Positions 22,605 through 31,331 of a stretch of 32,000 nucleotides of DNA are shown in pieces. This DNA comes from Pendulispora albinea (GTDB lineage Bacteria > Myxococcota_A > Polyangia > Polyangiales > Polyangiaceae). The position numbers and the translations under genes are program-made. The notes under the pieces are model-generated. The model was not told the DNA's origin, ran no database searches, and saw nothing but the letters and a program-made list of their open reading frames with translations. The stretch is from NCBI RefSeq assembly GCF_037157815.1, contig NZ_CP089984.1, one strand, 5' to 3'. Numbering within the stretch: the first letter of the stretch is position 1; every line of letters starts with the position of its first letter.

Positions 22605-22959
<355 letters not shown>

Positions 22960-22977
22960 TGATGCGATAAATTCGAT

Positions 22978-24593: not shown

Positions 24594-26777
24594 GTGAGCA
24601 CGGTCACCCCCGTGACGGTGGCGCAGAGGGACGACCTCATCGCCGATACGGCAACGAATACGGCAGCGGGCGCACCGAAAGTTGGAAGTCGCATCCGTGA
24701 ACACATTCGACTGGATCGACTCCTTGAGCGCGGTGAGGGTTGGATGCTCTATCTCGCCGACGATGAGGCGTGCGCCCACCTCATTCTTGTAGTCATCGCC
24801 ACATCTACGGCCGCCCTTGAAGCATGCTTGTCCGGTCGGGGAACAGGAACCGTTCTGAATCGGTCGACATTGGGGCTGCTGCACATCGCCGAAGTCATGC
24901 TTGAGGAAGCTCACTATCTCCGCTTTTGTGAGCGCCTCCTCGAGCCGCAGCATGCCGCGAGCAAAGAGCTGACGCTCGAATCTCCAAGTTCACCAAACGA
25001 AGCGCGCCTCGCGGTGGGTAGTACCTTCGCCGAGCGGTACCGCATCGACGGCGTGCTCGGTCGTGGCGGCATGGGCGAGGTGTATCGCGCATACGACAGC
25101 GTTTTTCAACGCACGGTCGCGCTCAAGGTCGTTCTGGACCACGCCTCCGAGAACACACCCGAGCAGCGCGATGACGCGCAACGACGGTTACTGAACGAAG
25201 CTCGTCTGGTGTCCGTGTTGAAGCATCCCCACATCGTCGAGATCTTCGACGCGGGCGAGAGCGCGGGGCTGCCGTACTTGGTCCTCGAGCTGTGTGACGG
25301 GGGTAATCTTCGGAAGGCCATGCAAGGAGATGCGGGGCAGACCGAGCGTTTGCAATGGCTCACGGAGATCGCGGAGGCGCTCGCCCATGCGCACGACCGC
25401 GGAATCGTGCATCGCGACGTGAAACCGGAGAACGTTCTCCTTACTCACGAGCGAAGGGCAAAGGTCACCGATTTCGGCATCGCGAAAGCGTTGAAGCGCG
25501 AAGGTCACGAAAGCAACACGTTGTTCAGCATTGTCGGCACGCCACGCTACATGGCGCCGGAGCAGCTCTCGGGCAAAGCCATCGATGCACGCGCCGACCA
25601 ATACGCCTGGGGGCTTGTCGCCCACGAGCTGCTCACGAAGTCCCACCCACGTTTGCGGGAGGTGAACGCGCTTCGCGTAGACCACGGTGCCACGGTGACG
25701 CCGACGGTACCGCCCCACCTGCGTCGCGTCCTGACGCGTGCAATGGCGCCAGAGCCAGAGGCTCGCTATGCCAATTTCCATGCGCTCTTTCTGGATTTGC
25801 AGCCTGCGCGGCGCTGGCGCGGGTGGCCTGTGGTCCTCGGAGCGATAGCAGCCCTCGCTGTAGCTGGTGTGACGGTGGGCCGGTCGATTGTCCGTCCCCA
25901 GGCCCCCGCCCAGGCAACTTCGGCGACCCCTCCGATCGCAACATTCGACACCGAGAAGGTCGATGCGGAAACGGTCAACCGTTGCGCCCCCTCGGCGCGT
26001 CCGCACCTCGCCGCGGGCCTTCAACTTTGGCGCGACGCTTCGGAATGGGAGGCACTTCCAAAACTCGAAGAAGCCACCACGCTGGATGCAGAATGCGCCT
26101 CCGCGAGTCTCTATTACATCATCGCCGCGAGCTACACCTTCCCGAAGCGGCGCGATCATTTCCGGCATGCACGCGAGCATCGTGCACGACTGACGGAGCG
26201 CGAGCGGCGGATCCTCGACGTCCTCGAGCCTTGGGTGGCCGATCCGCCCGATTTTGCGGAAGTCCATCGCCGGGCTGCCGCCAACTCCGCGCAGATGCCA
26301 CGCGATCCCGATTTTCGCACGCTCCACGCTCGCGCGTTGGCTCGCATGGGGCGTTTGGATGAGGCTCTTACCGTTCTCGATGCGAGTGCGGCCCTCCAGC
26401 TCAATCCCGTGGCGGGCCACGAATACGAGGCGGCACGAATACTCATTCGAAAGCGCGATATCGTCGCGGCGCTCGATCGGTTCGACCGATGCCTCAACGT
26501 ATCGCCGGACTCCGGGGATTGTCTCCGGTGGAAGGGACTGTTTCTCGCCTCGCGGGGGGACTGCACAAAAGCGGAGGCTGCCTTTCGCCGGCTCATCTCG
26601 GTCAAGTCGGACAGTCAGTTTGCGCACTACGCTCTCGCGAACGTGCTGCTCGTCTCGACGCACGATGCGACAGTTGCTCGGAACGCCTACGAACAACGTT
26701 GGCGCCACCTCTCGGCCAAGGACTTCCTCTCGACCCCGGCACCGGACGTCTCCCGCCTAACCCCAGAGATCACCTGA
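24594..26777 (+). CDS. membrane Ser/Thr protein kinase: unknown 140-aa N-domain, Hanks kinase domain, one TM helix, TPR-like extracytoplasmic domain; 3-prime end runs into the IS630 inverted repeat
   Basis: GGAGG (24583-24587) lies 6 nt before GTG 24594. G-loop LGRGGMGEVYRA; VALK; HRDVKPENVLL; DFGIAK; GTPRYMAPEQ. TM helix WPVVLGAIAALAVAGVTVG. Helical repeats lie downstream. The last 6 codons and the stop (26760-26777) are IS630 sequence. An alternative start is GTG 25014, just before the kinase domain. Confidence 0.8.
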   Translation: MSTVTPVTVAQRDDLIADTATNTAAGAPKVGSRIREHIRLDRLLERGEGWMLYLADDEACAHLILVVIATSTAALEACLSGRGTGTVLNRSTLGLLHIAEVMLEEAHYLRFCERLLEPQHAASKELTLESPSSPNEARLAVGSTFAERYRIDGVLGRGGMGEVYRAYDSVFQRTVALKVVLDHASENTPEQRDDAQRRLLNEARLVSVLKHPHIVEIFDAGESAGLPYLVLELCDGGNLRKAMQGDAGQTERLQWLTEIAEALAHAHDRGIVHRDVKPENVLLTHERRAKVTDFGIAKALKREGHESNTLFSIVGTPRYMAPEQLSGKAIDARADQYAWGLVAHELLTKSHPRLREVNALRVDHGATVTPTVPPHLRRVLTRAMAPEPEARYANFHALFLDLQPARRWRGWPVVLGAIAALAVAGVTVGRSIVRPQAPAQATSATPPIATFDTEKVDAETVNRCAPSARPHLAAGLQLWRDASEWEALPKLEEATTLDAECASASLYYIIAASYTFPKRRDHFRHAREHRARLTERERRILDVLEPWVADPPDFAEVHRRAAANSAQMPRDPDFRTLHARALARMGRLDEALTVLDASAALQLNPVAGHEYEAARILIRKRDIVAALDRFDRCLNVSPDSGDCLRWKGLFLASRGDCTKAEAAFRRLISVKSDSQFAHYALANVLLVSTHDATVARNAYEQRWRHLSAKDFLSTPAPDVSRLTPEIT

Positions 26778-27792
26778 GTGGAGCCCGATAACCGGCGTGA
26801 ACGAACCAGTTGCTCGCGTGCGTCTCGGTGACTCGAAAGCGCGCTCGTCTGGCGATGAGCCGAAGCGCTTTGGGGTGGCGGGGAGCGTGGCGTCGCACGT
26901 ATTGCTTTTGGAGGGCCCAGCCGGATTCAATTGGATTGAGGTCGGGCGAGTATGGGGGCAAGTAGACGACACGAACGCCGCGCGCCTTGCAGGCGGCTAC
27001 GACACGCGGGTCGCGGTGGGCGGGGAGGTTGTCCATCACCAGGACGTCTCCGGGGTACAGTCGAGGGAGCAGCTTGCGTTTCAGCCAAGCCAGGAAGCGG
27101 GGACGGTTGGCCGTTTTGAACATCGTGCTGAGGACGACCCATCCCGATAGGCGCATCGCCCCAAGAAGTGTGAGGTTCGTGCCCCAGTTCATAGGAATGC
27201 GATCGATGAATTCGCGACCTCGCTTCACCCAGGCGTGGCTCCGACTCATGGCCAGGTTTAGGCCCGATTCGTCGAGAAAAACCAGCTTTTCCACGGGAAT
27301 CCGGAGGATCCTCCGTCGGAAGGAGCGGCGCTTGGCTATGACGTCGGGTCGCTGACACTCCAACGGCCGTCGGCGTTTTTTTTGATGACGTACCCATACC
27401 GATGCAGCGCGCGCTTCATGCTGGACACATGAACTCGCGCGCCCCGCGGGCGAAGCCGATTGAACTCCGCCGTAATCTCGTTAGCGGTCGCATCGCGCAG
27501 CTTCGCAACAAGCGCATCAACGTCGCCCTGGCCGATCGGGGACGGCGTTCCGCCTCGCTTCGGGTCGGCGCCGAGCGGCACGCCACGACGCCCTCGACGA
27601 ACCCACCGCTTGACGCTCGCCTCACCGATACGAAATCGAGCGGCAATTACCGCATAGCTTCCGTCGCCAGCTTCGTACGCCTCGACGACCCTGGCTCTCA
27701 ATTCAAGAGGGTGCGCTTCCGCCATGCCGCGACCAGATCATGCCTCGAGCCAAAGAGCAAGACGCTTGATCGACCCAGGTGAGCACTGGGGT
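26760..27792 (-). mobile_element. IS630-family insertion sequence, 1033 bp, flanked by TA
   Basis: Inverted repeats are ACCCCAGAGATCACCTGAGTGG (26760-) and the reverse complement of 27792- (ACCCCAGTGCTCACCTGGGTCG), matching 18/22. A TA dinucleotide lies on both sides (26758-26759 and 27793-27794), the family-typical target duplication. Confidence 0.85.
26770..27725 (-). CDS. IS630-family DDE transposase in two frames joined by a -1 slip on an A8 run
   Basis: orfA 27336..27725 (HTH, ...HRYGYVIKK) and orfB 26770..27384 (..RRRPLECQRPDV...VFLDESG...VLVMDNLPAH...YSPDLNPIE). The run of 8 A (minus strand, 27376-27383) allows a -1 shift giving ...VIKKKRRRPLECQRPDV..., matching the usual ..KKK....EQDRPDV.. 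junction of the family. Confidence 0.8.
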
Positions 27793-27925
27793 TAACACTA
27801 CTCAGTCAATTTATGGTGGAGCGAACAGGCGCACCGGAGCGCTGCATCGCGGGCAAGGCGTAGTGAGGCACTGCAGGAGACGCTTCCGAATCGAAGGGAG
27901 CGTCGCCGGCCGGTGCGGGTCCTCG

Positions 27926-28079
27926 CTACGCCGAAGCTTTATTTTCGCGGAGGCGTTCCTGTTGAAGAAACGCGAAGCTCACGAGAGTGAGAAGTGCGTG
28001 GTGATGAAGGCCACGCCAGGAGCGACCCTCGAAGTGGTCGAGCCCGAGCTCCTCTTTTAGCTGCTGGTGGCCTTGCTCG
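27926..28079 (-). pseudogene. IS701-family transposase, 3-prime part
   Basis: ...[42 protein letters not shown], the conserved C-terminal block of IS701-type DDE transposases. It is separated from the rest of the gene by the insertion at 28076-30020. Confidence 0.75.
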
Positions 28080-29672
28080 ATCACCTTGACGCAAACCACC
28101 AAATCGTCCTGACAGAGGGATAGCGTGCTCGATCGTGAGCTTGTCGCCGGTAACGACGACGCGCTCAAGAAGAAGACGGACGATCCTTTGGCGCTCGGTG
28201 AAGTCGAGCTTGTCGAATCCCTTGCGGAGTGTCGAGGCGAAGGCCGCGAGGTCATCGGCGATGCGTGTAACGCGGGTGGAGTCCATCTGCTGACCAATCA
28301 AGTCCTCGCCTCGGAGGCTGACGGAGTCCATGGCACTGTCGAGTCTCTCGCGTCGGGACTTCAGTTGCTCGACGCTGATCGCTCCTCGTTGGTATGCGTC
28401 GATCAATCGCTCGACTTGGAGTTCGAGTTGTCGTCTCGCTCCTTCCAGGCGCGCGAGCTCCTTGGCAACGCTCGACGCGGCTTGACGACTTGTTCGCCAT
28501 AGTTCGAGTTCGCGTTGGAGCATTGCGGGGCTCTGCACCCAAGATCGAATCGCGTCCCACACAACACCGTCGAGTTCCTCTGCGCGCACGCGCTTGGCGG
28601 TGCACTTGCTCATTCGCCCGGTGTCGACAGGATCGCGGCGAGCACATTCATAGTAAAAATACTCGTAGCGCTTGCACACGCTCGACTGGTGCCCACACGC
28701 CATCTTCCAACCGCACTCACCGCACGTGACGAGAGCCCGCAGCAAGTAGTCATGCTGCACGTTGCGTGGCGCCCAGATTTTGTTCTTCGCCAGCCGTGTC
28801 CGCACGCACTCTTGATCCTTTTCGGTAACGAGCGAAGGAATCGAAACGTGTAGCCATTGCGCCCGCGGGCGGATGACGTGCGAGCTCTTCGCGTTCTTAC
28901 GATATCCACCAGGACGACGCGGACGCTTTGGCTCTGCGGGTTCGCGTTTGCCGTACGTCGCCATGCCCGTGTACGCAGCGTTGGTCAGGATGACGTGCAC
29001 GCTGCCTGCGACCCAGATCTTGGCGCGGCGCGGCTTGATGCCGAGCGCGTTCAATCGTTTGGCGACTTGCCGTGCACTCAGCCCTTCGTCGAGCACCCAT
29101 CGATACATCGCACGGACATTCTGCGCCTCGACCTCGTCGATCACAATGCTTCCACCGGGCACGGCCTTCGTCCTGACGATCGCGTATCCGTACGGCGGTA
29201 TTCCAAAAGGAAGCATTCGACCTTCGCGCACTTTGTGCATTCGTCCTCGCCGCGTACGTTCCAGGATCTTGGCACGCTCGTACTCGGCGATCACTCCTTG
29301 CATCTGGACAAGCAGTCGATCCTCCGCACGCTCGCCGACAGGATGTTCAACGAAGTGTACGCGCACCCCACGCTTGGTGAGCTCTTCGAGGATGACCTGC
29401 TGATGGACGTAACTTCGCGCGAGCCGATCAGGACAATATATGTAAATTACATCTATCAATCCATCTGCCGCGGCGTCGCGAAGTGCATCGAACGCGGGGC
29501 GGTCCAAACGCGACCCGCTGAATCCTTCATCGACATAGCGCCGATCCGGCGCGATGCTCACGCCACCAGCGGCGCACGCGCGTTCGATCGCTTCGACTTG
29601 CGAGCCGATCGTTTTCTCTTGCTCCTGGCGCGCCGTTGAAACGCGCGCGTACAGCGCCGCTCGGTTCTTCAT
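27939..29672 (-). CDS. large serine recombinase (reads through attL; about 531 native codons)
   Basis: Catalytic [12 protein letters not shown]. Resolvase domain ...YCPDRLARS...[15 protein letters not shown]. Recombinase domain. Zinc ribbon LVTCGECGW...[11 protein letters not shown]. Coiled coil [23 protein letters not shown]. The ORF continues past the CTCG core into IS701 antisense sequence, to a stop at 27939. Confidence 0.9.
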
Positions 29673-30020
29673 GCATCACGCTCCTCGAGAACGCCGACGC
29701 TCGTGGGGATGAGGAGCCTCGACCTCTCGTTGTTGTCCGTTTGCATTGCGCGGGCGGCGGCCTCTCGGACGATCACGAGCTTCACCACCTGCCCGAGTCG
29801 TTCCAAACCGTCGGATTGCGGTCTCGCGCGTAACTCGACCTTCCATTTTCGCTTCGCCATCGCCGATGGCCTCCCCGCGCGAGGGAGCCCCATCACGACT
29901 CGCGCCGCAGGGCAAGTTTTCGGCTACGCCGCGATGTCGCGATCGACGAACCAGCTTGAAAACTCGTCGCTCCAGCGCGAAGCGGACCAAGATTTTACGG
30001 TTTGCGTCTGGGCTTCCTCG
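28076..30020 (-). mobile_element. IS-sized integrative element encoding only a large serine recombinase and a 63-codon ORF
   Basis: An identical CTCG core lies at both junctions (28076-28079 and 30017-30020). A 20-nt inverted repeat sits 8 nt inside each core (28088-28107 and 29989-30008; first 10 nt perfect, 16/20 overall). Removing the element restores the IS701 transposase frame. Confidence 0.7.
29669..29860 (-). CDS. 63-codon ORF translationally coupled to the recombinase gene (candidate accessory/directionality factor)
   Basis: GGGGAGG lies 9 nt upstream of ATG 29860. [65 protein letters not shown]3 is about 75%, against about 55% in the competing frame. Its TGA overlaps the recombinase ATG (ATGA, 29669-29672). 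Confidence 0.4.
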   Translation of the reverse strand: MAKRKWKVELRARPQSDGLERLGQVVKLVIVREAAARAMQTDNNERSRLLIPTSVGVLEERDA

Positions 30021-31069
30021 CACGACCAGCGCGCTTTGATCGCGCCCACGACTTTCCGAAGCGATGCGTCGGTTGGATGGTTCGTTAGGTAGTACTTCTT
30101 TTCGCCGTTCGCTCGTTCTTCACAGACGAGCCAGGCCTCCGTGCCGGGCAAACGGCATCCGACGCCGGTTCGCTTGCCGTCTGCGATGGCGACGCGACAA
30201 CGAGCGAAGCGGGCACTCATCGGTCTGCCTGTCGTCGTTGTTCGCCAGGTGACTTTCTTGAATCCTTTATCACCGAGGGCCTGAATCATCTCCGAGGCGG
30301 CATCGACGGGGTGACTCGGAATCGGATGTTTCTGATTTCCGATGCGAGCTGGCATCTTGATTTTCACGTTGGCCGGATAGACCTGTTGAGTCGACTGTAC
30401 TCCGAGTGCCCAGAGCAGCCCTTCGCTCGAAAGCGCCTCGCGAAACTCTGTGCAGTGGCCGTAACCGGCGTCGGCCAGCACCGTCCCGAACCGAACGCCC
30501 GCTTTCCGAAGGCGTCTCACTTCGTCGATCGCGATCCTCCACTTCTCGCGAAAGACGACGTTGTCCGGGATGCCCACTTTCGCGCGTCGCTCCGGGTCGG
30601 CAGCCCAATCCATCGGAACGTAGAGCTGCAAGGACAGCGGAAGGGGAACGATGTCGTTGGCCAACGTCACGGACACCAAGCACTGACAGTTCGCCTGTTT
30701 TCCGAGCGCTCCGCAGTACTGATGTGCGACGCCAACCGATTCGCTTCCCTTCTTTGGGAGTGCGGTGTCGTCGATGATCAAGAACGCATCGTCCGCACCA
30801 AGTAATGCATCCGCCTTCTCCCACAGCACTTCTTCGACCGCCGCGGCGTCCCAAGCAGACTCGCTTACGAAGTGACGCAACTCCTGCTCGTGACCAGGCG
30901 CAACTCGCTCTGCCAGCGGCTCGATACTCTTCCGCTCGCCGGGCAGCAGTAGCCCTCGCAGGTAGAGCGGTGCCCAATACCTGCGTTTCTTCGTCCGCCA
31001 CGCCGCGAGAAAGGGCTCGAGGAACCGATCGAAGCGCTGCTCCCAACCTGTCGAAGACACGGCCCACAA
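30017..31069 (-). pseudogene. IS701-family transposase, 5-prime part
   Basis: TTG start at 31069 (no ATG or GTG upstream before a stop). ...YLRGLLLPGERKSIEPLAERV...FLIIDDTALPKKGSESVGVAHQYCGALGKQANCQ...VLADAGYG...KYYLTNHP...LRKVVGAIKARW. It then diverges into element-derived sequence. Confidence 0.8.
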
Positions 31070-31126
31070 TGAAGCAGAGCGGCCGCCGAATGGAAAGTAA
31101 AAAGTGACCGAGTAGTGTTAAGTGCG

Positions 31127-31285
31127 TATTCCGACGTGACTCGGGGATCGATTCCAACGACACCCGGGGCCTCATTCCAACGTGACCCGGGGGCCGATTC
31201 CTGGGCACCCGGGGACGCATTCCAACGACACCCGGGGGCCGATTCCTAGGCACCCGGGGACGCATTCCAAAGGGGGCGGTCCCCC
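31127..31285. repeat. array of 7 direct repeats with 22-23 bp period (ATTCC-N6-8-CACCCGGGG), including a 45-bp tandem duplication
   Basis: ATTCC starts at 31128, 31151, 31174, 31197, 31219, 31242 and 31264. Segments 31174-31218 and 31219-31263 are 42/45 identical. The array lies between the IS701 end and the istA start. Confidence 0.8.
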
Positions 31286-31331
31286 CCGCAGCGGCGAGCA
31301 GGGTCACAGCTTCATCGCGTAGACAGGCGCG

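Follow-up and report, generated by a model that had tools for sequence, protein, structure and literature searches.

Organization of the locus

The window analyzed here is the whole of a 32,000-nucleotide (32-kb) stretch of Pendulispora albinea contig NZ_CP089984.1, in which an insertion sequence (IS) of the IS701 family is interrupted, within its transposase gene, by a 1,941-bp segment coding for a large serine recombinase (LSR) and one small protein. This segment, 28076-30016, is probably an autonomous, IS-sized mobile element that uses the LSR as its enzyme and whose recombinase gene is split by integration, a reading built from sequence comparisons. The features of the locus are as follows, with a caret marking the crossover and ORF standing for open reading frame.

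27792..31121, minus strand: host IS701-family IS, ~1,389 bp without the insert
27792-27812 and 31101-31121, both ends: IS701 terminal inverted repeats, 21 nt, 90% complementary, TTAACACTACTC...
30017..31069, minus strand: 5' part of the IS701 transposase ORF, ending ...GAIKARWSCE, with the crossover in the Glu codon G^AG
27926..28075, minus strand: 3' part of the IS701 transposase ORF through the stop codon, collinear with protein records P0121, P0123, P0124, and P0251
28076..30016, minus strand: LSR element, 1,941 bp including one copy of the core
28076..28079, no strand: core CTCG, junction on the 3' side of the recombinase gene
30017..30020, no strand: core CTCG, junction on the 5' side of the recombinase gene
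28088..28107, no strand: attP arm within the 3' end of the LSR gene, encoding ...RFGGLR
29989..30008, no strand: attP arm at the opposite end of the element, encoding DANRK in the extension frame
27939..29672, minus strand: LSR ORF in its integrated form, 577 amino acids (aa), Pfam Resolvase, Recombinase, and Zn_ribbon_recom
28077..29672, minus strand: LSR gene body, 532 codons, common to the integrated and circular forms
27939..28076, minus strand: foreign tail of the integrated LSR ORF, 45 codons of out-of-frame IS701 DNA
29669..29860, minus strand: small ORF, 63 aa, conserved, with an ATGA overlap at the LSR start
29676..30017, minus strand: extension frame, 113 codons plus stop, with no start of its own and joined to the LSR ORF only through the circular junction
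29940..30008, minus strand: conserved part of the extension, DANRKILVRFALERRVFKLVRRS, no stops, ratio of nonsynonymous to synonymous polymorphism (pN/pS) of 0.45

The core CTCG is present at both junctions, and 8 nt inward of each core begins a 20-nt inverted repeat, which reads GACGCAAACCACCAAATCGT at 28088-28107 and GACGCAAACCGTAAAATCTT as the reverse complement of 29989-30008; all of the coordinates put forward for these features in the original prediction were reproduced from the sequence. The two copies are identical at 16/20 positions, including all of the outer 10 (GACGCAAACC), and the pattern GACGCAAACCNNNAAATC has only two sites in the window, with 0.07 expected from shuffled sequences and two matches in none of 100 shuffles. 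The arm motif GGTTTGCGTC is kept across the family of related elements described below, and the reconstructed attP, GGTTTGCGTC-N20-GACGCAAACC, is dyad-symmetric with GA at its center on the gene strand (12-17 of 18 positions are symmetric in attP sites reconstructed across the family). The dyad center of the core lies between the T and C of CTCG, and the crossover dinucleotide would be TC on the plus strand and GA on the gene strand, the cleavage position itself being placed by symmetry.

No bases beyond the shared core are duplicated at the insertion, and deletion of the element restores the interrupted ORF exactly, which together with the dyad attP supports the earlier proposal of insertion by central crossover and without target duplication. 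A short dyad attP, a central 2-bp crossover, and the absence of target duplication are as expected of LSRs. The dyad symmetry also proposed for attB holds at this locus (7/10 positions) but not for the other reconstructed attB sites (3-10/20, near chance). The predicted circle junction on the gene strand is GGTTTGCGTCAAGGTGATCGAGGAAGCCCAGACGCAAACC, and the empty site predicted after excision is ATCAAAGCGCGCTGGTCGTGCGAGCAAGGCCACCAGCAG.

Removal of 28076-30016 yields an uninterrupted 400-aa transposase ORF (Pfam DDE_5, 1e-79) with more than 100 homologues of ~400 aa, 99% covered; it is collinear with intact homologues that run uninterrupted across the join (P0121, 90% identical, and P0123, P0124, and P0251), and the proposed continuity of the IS701 frame is thereby borne out. 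The DNA encoding P0121 (locus L161) is ATCAAAGCGCGTTGGTCATGTGAGCAAGGTCACCAGCAG, the predicted attB with differences at third codon positions only, and this uninterrupted relative, which also carries the IS701 terminal motif, provides the intact copy with an unoccupied site that had been called for. The IS701 family does not carry the segment as a constant component, because the same or related elements sit in unrelated contexts, and hundreds of IS701 homologues are without it. The IS701 itself has no clear target-site duplication, with flanks of ...ACTGGGG and GTGCGTA...

The recombinase and the small ORF

The LSR body holds a catalytic Ser12, a recombinase domain, a zinc ribbon, and a coiled coil, as is canonical for LSRs and in agreement with its initial description as a large serine recombinase. 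The resolvase-type catalytic domain (PF00239, 6e-34) covers residues 5-152, and its YARVS(12)T motif is kept in 116 homologues; the recombinase domain (PF07508, 1e-15) and zinc ribbon (PF13408, 5e-11) are both recognized, and Cys317, Cys320, and Cys343 are invariant. Residues 293-517 align with the C-terminal domain of the A118 integrase, the protein matches the PHROG 95 integrases (2e-102), and an AlphaFold2 model has long helices at residues 399-488, where the coiled coil usually sits. No DUF4368 domain was detected with Pfam. Against the NCBIfam IS607 model the LSR scores 28.6 bits (cut-off, 110), and with its catalytic domain first it is not of the IS607 type; against the XisF equivalog model it scores 105 bits (cut-off, 375). 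An enzyme of this class would be expected to catalyze attP x attB recombination and, together with a directionality factor, attL x attR recombination.

The cargo is, as first described, the LSR gene and an adjacent 63-codon ORF, translationally coupled to it by an ATGA overlap. The small ORF is called as a 63- to 67-aa protein in eight close relatives, which share the N-terminal motif KRxWKVxWxARPxxDGxERLGxAVKL, and has no match among Pfam, NCBIfam, or PHROG families. AlphaFold2 models it as an extended N terminus followed by a single long helix, with a predicted local distance difference test (pLDDT) score of 66. An Rfam scan gave no match inside the element. At 1,941 bp, with an LSR gene and a conserved 63-aa ORF as its content, the element lies below the ~2.5-kb limit of the operational definition of an insertion sequence and appears to code for its own movement only.

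A family of related elements

Homologues of the LSR number in the thousands, and the best 120 are 50-100% identical and mostly encoded on contigs of 1.8-4 kb; relatives are encoded in 99 genomic and 353 metagenomic stretches and are spread over Myxococcota, Alphaproteobacteria, and low-GC lineages, often in multiple copies with unrelated flanks. All of the compared LSR homologues keep the sequence ...IPLSGRFxGLR, after which their tails diverge at the junction. Both ends could be defined at ~28 loci, which are 1,925-1,941 bp long, have the arrangement arm(10)-N20-arm(10), and are in frame through the circle junction; other copies thus end at the same core and with the same arm geometry, as the initial description of the element required. 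Two more divergent clades share the design, one in Alphaproteobacteria (37% LSR identity, attP TTGTACAGTCGATC-GT-GATCGACTGTACAA) and one in low-GC lineages (38-40% LSR identity, arms AATTTGCAAC/GTTACAAATT, 1,851-1,865 bp), and there are plasmid-borne relatives at 33-37% identity.

Relatives at 35-38% identity in metagenome-assembled genomes of Actinomycetota (L028-L030, L035, L037, L038, L042, L043, and L066) form larger multicopy units of 2.75 kb (common to L035 and L038), ~3.06 kb (the L028 group), and 4.5 kb (common to L042 and L043; 2.7 kb with L066). Their arms include CGCACCAAGCGAACGCA, a further conserved ORF of ~100 aa (FWPIxEPAQADYERLR...) lies upstream, and in these units, too, the LSR ORF runs across the right arm. 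On Methylobacterium aquaticum plasmid pMaqPC1 (L162, 2498-5122), an IS4 transposase gene on the opposite strand directly follows a shortened recombinase gene and overlaps the end of the LSR match, as if the roles were reversed and an IS had inserted into an LSR element.

Insertion sites

Nearly all of the insertions lie within genes of other mobile elements. In the subfamily of the window element, 12 independent left junctions (the window, L001, L081, L082, L084, L086-L090, L104, and L125) directly follow the codons for ...R-W-x-I-E, with the crossover inside the Glu codon (ATC G^AG). The joined flanks restore Y-x2-R-W-x-I-E-x2-F-x2-L-K, a signature that we take to mark the last catalytic residue of IS4/IS5/IS701-type DDE transposases, and the restored ORFs match DDE_5 or DDE_Tnp_1. 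Target DNA outside ATCGAG is degenerate, and the LSR gene is always co-oriented with the transposase gene that it interrupts.

The low-GC clade uses the same motif (HRWKIE^EFH and SRWGIE), and four sites of the alphaproteobacterial clade each follow LPKRW(I/V)V in an IS5-type gene. Elements in Archangium and related genomes interrupt the C-terminal RTFxxD^V motif of ISCR/IS91-type transposases (4e-8), those in Sorangium interrupt the IS66 TnpA (3e-17), L005 and L018 interrupt a Transposase_31 (Rpn-like) gene at LEHQSSVD^ (1e-43), and L094 interrupts a tyrosine integrase gene. One target, the Rhs/Tc-toxin-like gene at L009, is clearly not a mobile-element gene, as judged from its sequence. The dyad center is G^A in the window subfamily, the IS91-targeting subfamily, and the low-GC clade, and GT in the alphaproteobacterial clade. 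At L112, the IS91-like site of L014 and L015 is occupied in the opposite orientation, so the assigned central dinucleotide or dyad center may differ in that subfamily.

An element with such targets is a parasite of other insertion sequences, and related subfamilies use other mobile-element genes. This target preference and the splitting of the recombinase gene are the two points that go beyond the original prediction.

The recombinase gene is split at attP

The LSR ORF crosses attL and has different tails in the integrated and circular forms, as originally noted and now confirmed by recomputed junctions. The ORF meets the junction after codon 532; in the circular form another 113 codons follow, the stop falling 3 nt short of the ATG of the same ORF, and the predicted fusion peptide across the circular junction includes GLRQGDRGSPDANRK. 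The canonical LSR fold ends at ~residue 517, and the extension comes farther on, after a Gly/Pro-rich linker. Because attP lies within the recombinase gene, integration splits that gene; the tails of 116 LSR homologues all diverge exactly at the junction, and the LSR ORF crosses attP in all three clades.

The first ~23 codons of the extension are conserved, with the consensus D(A/T)NxKxx(V/I/L)RFxLHRRVFKLxRR. Among 26 distinct sequences the extension frame is without stops at a pN/pS of 0.45, and the other five frames either exceed 1 or contain stops. Arg14 is invariant yet is encoded by five codons (CGC, CGG, CGT, AGG, and CGA), and Leu12, His13, and Val16 are likewise conserved residues with varied synonymous codons. 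The alphaproteobacterial clade has a different conserved peptide at the same position and in the same frame (DRLYNLARPDFEWSKTIRRSELRDLGF..AGLNLHRVPP; pN/pS, 0.43). In the low-GC clade (36-40% GC) the extension is open for ~60 codons to a conserved stop, with stops in the other frames, and carries the motif NxTFRF(I/V)TxTxVFxLxR(R/K)...SPG(V/I)(V/I)FQ(N/D)xG; the chance of 65 codons staying open at this GC content is estimated at ~1%. When the 162 fetched loci and the window were scanned in six frames, every occurrence of the extension motif lay upstream of an LSR gene and on its strand.

Three other origins for the conserved left end were considered and rejected. A start codon belonging to the extension is not a general feature, as ATG, GTG, or TTG is present at codons 7-8 in at most 6 of the 26 sequences, and the low-GC left ends and the alphaproteobacterial sequences that were read have no in-frame ATG, GTG, or TTG. 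For an antisense gene, the frame in which the wobble positions coincide has stops in three sequences and a TGA in the window. The frame of the target transposase, from which any read-through would come, is shifted by one base and stays open for just 11-30 codons. Having no conserved start codon and lying outside the frame of the target gene, the extension could, to judge from the sequence, be made only as an LSR C terminus, which requires a template that is circular or in tandem.

Conservation of this end could instead act on DNA, through an extended attP, accessory binding sites, or a promoter or leader, with the in-frame run-on being an accident of att geometry. The first five codons (DANxK) are the attP arm and are certainly constrained as DNA, the relation of the frames follows automatically from conserved arm spacing, the small ORF overlaps the run-on where members are GC-rich, and no confident fold of the extension came from AlphaFold. 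Codons 8-22, however, lie 33-66 bp from the crossover, whereas the inverted repeat formed by the arm plus AAATC reaches only ~28 bp, and constraint on DNA does not account for invariant Arg, Leu, Val, and His residues that are encoded by as many as five synonymous codons (AGG as well as CGN for Arg), nor for a pN/pS of 0.41-0.45 in the extension frame only. The ~60-codon open frame with a conserved end in 36-40% GC DNA, and the recurrence of one arrangement in three clades at 37-40% LSR identity despite different peptides, also argue against it, and we consider this explanation unlikely. The codon-level pattern shows the signature of a protein-coding segment under protein-level selection.

Copies and mobility

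Near-identical copies are present in different contexts in Sorangium, in Archangium, and in P. albinea (P0001 and the IS701 junction records), as for insertion sequences. Copies L008 and L009 of Sorangium So ce726 are 100% identical over 1,937 bp and have unrelated flanks, and multiple copies are also present in So ce26 and in Archangium lansingense (three in Archangium). Contigs often break at the ends of the element; L085 is 1,941 bp long, and L012 is 1,953 bp with a coverage of 100 given in its name, so that such element-sized contigs have what looks like the appearance of collapsed repeats. In Sorangium cellulosum So ce26, L007 and L006 have a common left flank (IS66 TnpA) and different right flanks, which would fit recombination between copies or an adjacent deletion.

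For P. albinea, copy number and flanks are taken from protein records only. P0001 (WXB19423.1) is a second LSR copy, 100% identical as far as the junction and then with a different tail, which has only Ala-Arg in common with the right half of the IS701 attB and no DDE-like motif thereafter. P0250 (WXB13917.1) corresponds to the truncated transposase of the window, including its read-through tail, and the same 30-residue tail, EEAQTQTVKSW..., ends the IS701 records P0122 (WXB12899.1 and WXB13568.1), P0250, and P0249 (WXB12482.1), so that this genome has four or more instances of the nested arrangement.

These four identical tails, and the lack of an intact P. albinea IS701 protein among the close matches, are what would be expected if the nested unit were immobile and a single ancient insertion had been amplified as a composite by the IS701 transposase in trans, with the LSR as passenger. 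Such amplification does not explain P0001, where the same element has another right flank within this genome, or the identical Sorangium copies in unrelated, non-IS flanks, and it cannot yield relatives at the homologous codon of at least 12 different DDE transposases; with the LSR and small ORF of the window also intact, we regard it as very unlikely.

A domesticated developmental interruption element, comparable to skin in sigK or to the fdxN, nifD, and hupL elements, would switch on its gene by excision, and here excision would exactly restore a transposase ORF in a myxobacterium, a group with developmental programs; recombinase-only interruption elements are also known (PMC4874684). The interrupted genes are nevertheless transposases and other mobile-element genes and not host developmental genes, identical copies of these multicopy elements have different flanks, the family extends over several phyla and to plasmids, and the NCBIfam XisF score (105, cut-off 375) is low, making this origin highly improbable. 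The similarity of the LSR to phage-type integrases (PHROG 95, 2e-102) suggests a prophage or integrative element that lost its other genes and decayed to an integration module, but the uniform size of 1.85-1.94 kb, the presence of two intact att arms in dozens of independent elements, the conserved two-gene content, and flanks without phage genes leave this origin next to no credibility.

Proposed transposition cycle

Interpretation of 28076-30016 as an autonomous, IS-sized LSR element inside the IS701 transposase gene, the core of the original prediction, is supported by its anatomy, its family, and its empty site. The precision of the insertion, the shared geometry of the family, copies in unrelated flanks, the target bias, and coding selection on the tail are all features of the compared sequences, and the following cycle can be proposed. 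The LSR would recombine the two junctions, releasing a 1,941-bp circle and restoring the IS701 transposase ORF, and this circle, presumably the transposition intermediate, would integrate without target duplication at a new site with an (A/G)TCGAG core; in the window subfamily the new site would be the Glu codon of Y-x2-R-W-x-I-E in a DDE transposase gene, entered in the same orientation, and the nonpalindromic GA would set that orientation. An integrated copy would make the 532-residue body with a junk tail, and only the circle would encode the body fused to the conserved C-terminal module. Full-length LSR made from the circle may be the integration-proficient or regulated form, and integration, by dismantling the full-length gene, would damp activity in the integrated state. 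The 63-aa protein, by analogy with the small directionality factors of other LSRs, may let attL x attR recombination proceed.

Several observations weigh against this interpretation. Neither a circle nor a tandem junction turned up in the assemblies and protein sets compared. The extension motif, which would mark such a form, is present in 0 of the 116 homologue tails, and an HMMER search of 1.84 billion representative proteins, with a query spanning the junction (60 extension residues joined to LSR residues 440-532), aligned nothing across it; the sole extension-only match, P0285, is a gene-caller ORF of the extension frame. Pfam, NCBIfam, and PHROGs hold no match for the extension, and in an AlphaFold model of the LSR with its extension the body is confident and the extension has a pLDDT below 50, with no confident structure or docking. 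The extension is short and its pN/pS of 0.4-0.6 is moderate; in GC-rich members the frame beyond ~25 codons overlaps the small ORF and may be open by chance, and in one subgroup it stops after 56-58 codons, so that only the first 25-60 residues are claimed as functional. The 63-aa protein is a candidate accessory or directionality factor by analogy. The four or more IS701 junctions in P. albinea fit homing of the element but would also fit composite amplification by IS701, and the 577-aa LSR of the window is absent from the protein collection searched, in which nested LSR copies may be annotated otherwise or as pseudogenes. A scan of 27700-31300 found no sigma-70-like promoter, so expression in the integrated state may rely on read-through from the co-oriented transposase gene.

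Comparison with known systems

A circular intermediate is used by the transposons Tn5397 and Tn4451 (~6 kb). Integration and excision of the 21-kb Tn5397 require only TndX, which prefers DNA with a central GA that encodes a conserved Fic domain (PMC4430133), and DUF4368 is found in 63% of the TndX/TnpX clade (PMC10083194). These transposons resemble the window element in having an LSR as transposase, and a central GA is also found here; they differ in being larger, in carrying resistance and transfer or mobilization genes, and in typically containing DUF4368, which is absent here. Splitting of their own gene and targeting of transposase genes are not reported for them, unlike in the window element. 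The homing of TndX to DNA for a conserved domain with a central GA is a precedent for the target choice of the family.

In heterocystous cyanobacteria, interruption elements as small as ~1 kb consist essentially of a serine or tyrosine recombinase only; they interrupt ORFs that are restored on excision, and intragenomic transposition has been inferred for them (PMC4874684). They share the minimal, recombinase-only design, but their targets are host genes (nif, hup, and fdx) with developmental excision, whereas the window family is multicopy, crosses phyla, and targets mobile elements; no conserved small ORF, transposase targeting, or split recombinase gene is described for them. The original prediction called the arrangement unusual, which holds with a reservation, as recombinase-only elements (PMC4874684) and lone LSR transposases (PMC4430133) are known.

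The comparison with IS607 concerns size and chemistry. To our knowledge, IS catalogues list IS607 as the only serine-recombinase-based group. IS607 is IS-sized, uses serine chemistry, and makes no target-site duplication (PMC6188088, PMC4058570), all as in the window element; its small serine recombinase has an N-terminal helix-turn-helix before the catalytic domain, an order not found in the window LSR, which runs from catalytic to recombinase domain, zinc ribbon, and coiled coil.

The original prediction also drew an analogy to the intP gene of myxophage Mx8, and the analogy is stronger than was supposed, in that protein-level selection acts on the ORF beyond attP. In Mx8 intP, as in SSV1-type archaeal integrases and mycobacteriophage immunity systems, a gene spans attP and its product is changed or split by integration. 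Those are tyrosine recombinases on viruses, whereas the present element is IS-sized and relies on a serine recombinase, and what integration splits off is a short C-terminal module, unlike in the Mx8, SSV1-type, and mycobacteriophage cases. In IS3/IS911 circles, a promoter formed at the junction gives high transposase activity only in the circle; as a working analogy, those circles assemble a promoter and the circle of the window element would assemble a coding sequence. In the literature, with incomplete coverage, we found no LSR-only IS-like elements that target transposase genes and no LSR gene split by attP, and an LSR-only family targeting mobile-element genes is apparently undescribed.

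Neighboring features

A complete tmRNA gene (ssrA) is present on the plus strand at 22605-22961 (Rfam RF00023, 178.8 bits), and the region downstream of it (from ~23 to 32 kb in the window) contains kinases and at least three mobile elements. As ssrA is a common integration hotspot, this region may be an island. An IS630-family element (26770-27725, minus strand) immediately adjoins the IS701, and its transposase is spread over two ORFs that overlap, one with HTH_28/HTH_Tnp_IS630 (27336-27725) and one with DDE_3 (26770-27363), which suggests a frameshifted or programmed-frameshift gene. On the other side, a 45-bp tandem repeat (31128-31270; 3.2 copies, 86% matches) begins 7 bp past the IS701 terminal repeat.

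Implications

Beyond the locus itself, we offer, tentatively and at somewhat less than even confidence, the broader view that these elements represent a widespread, unrecognized family of LSR-driven insertion sequences that are hyperparasites of mobile DNA, specialized in breaking the catalytic-motif codons of other transposases and further mobile-element genes, and that sense their own topology through recombinase isoforms, with direction set together with the 63-aa protein and without a phage-type switch. LSR elements of such uniform size (~1.9 kb), present in many lineages of soil and fresh water as well as on plasmids and annotated simply as "recombinase family protein," would be a possible additional class of IS. 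Compact LSRs with a short attP and a defined, degenerate target are also the kind of enzyme sought by surveys of recombinases (such as PMC10083194). A gene that is complete only in the circle would be a simple and testable means of controlling the direction of a serine integrase, with bearing on LSRs that are poor in known factors and on genome engineering. Insertion into the most conserved codons of other transposases suggests a natural and reversible silencing of mobile elements combined with riding on them, and silencing of insertion sequences by an LSR element bears on how IS load may be regulated in large genomes such as those of the myxobacteria.

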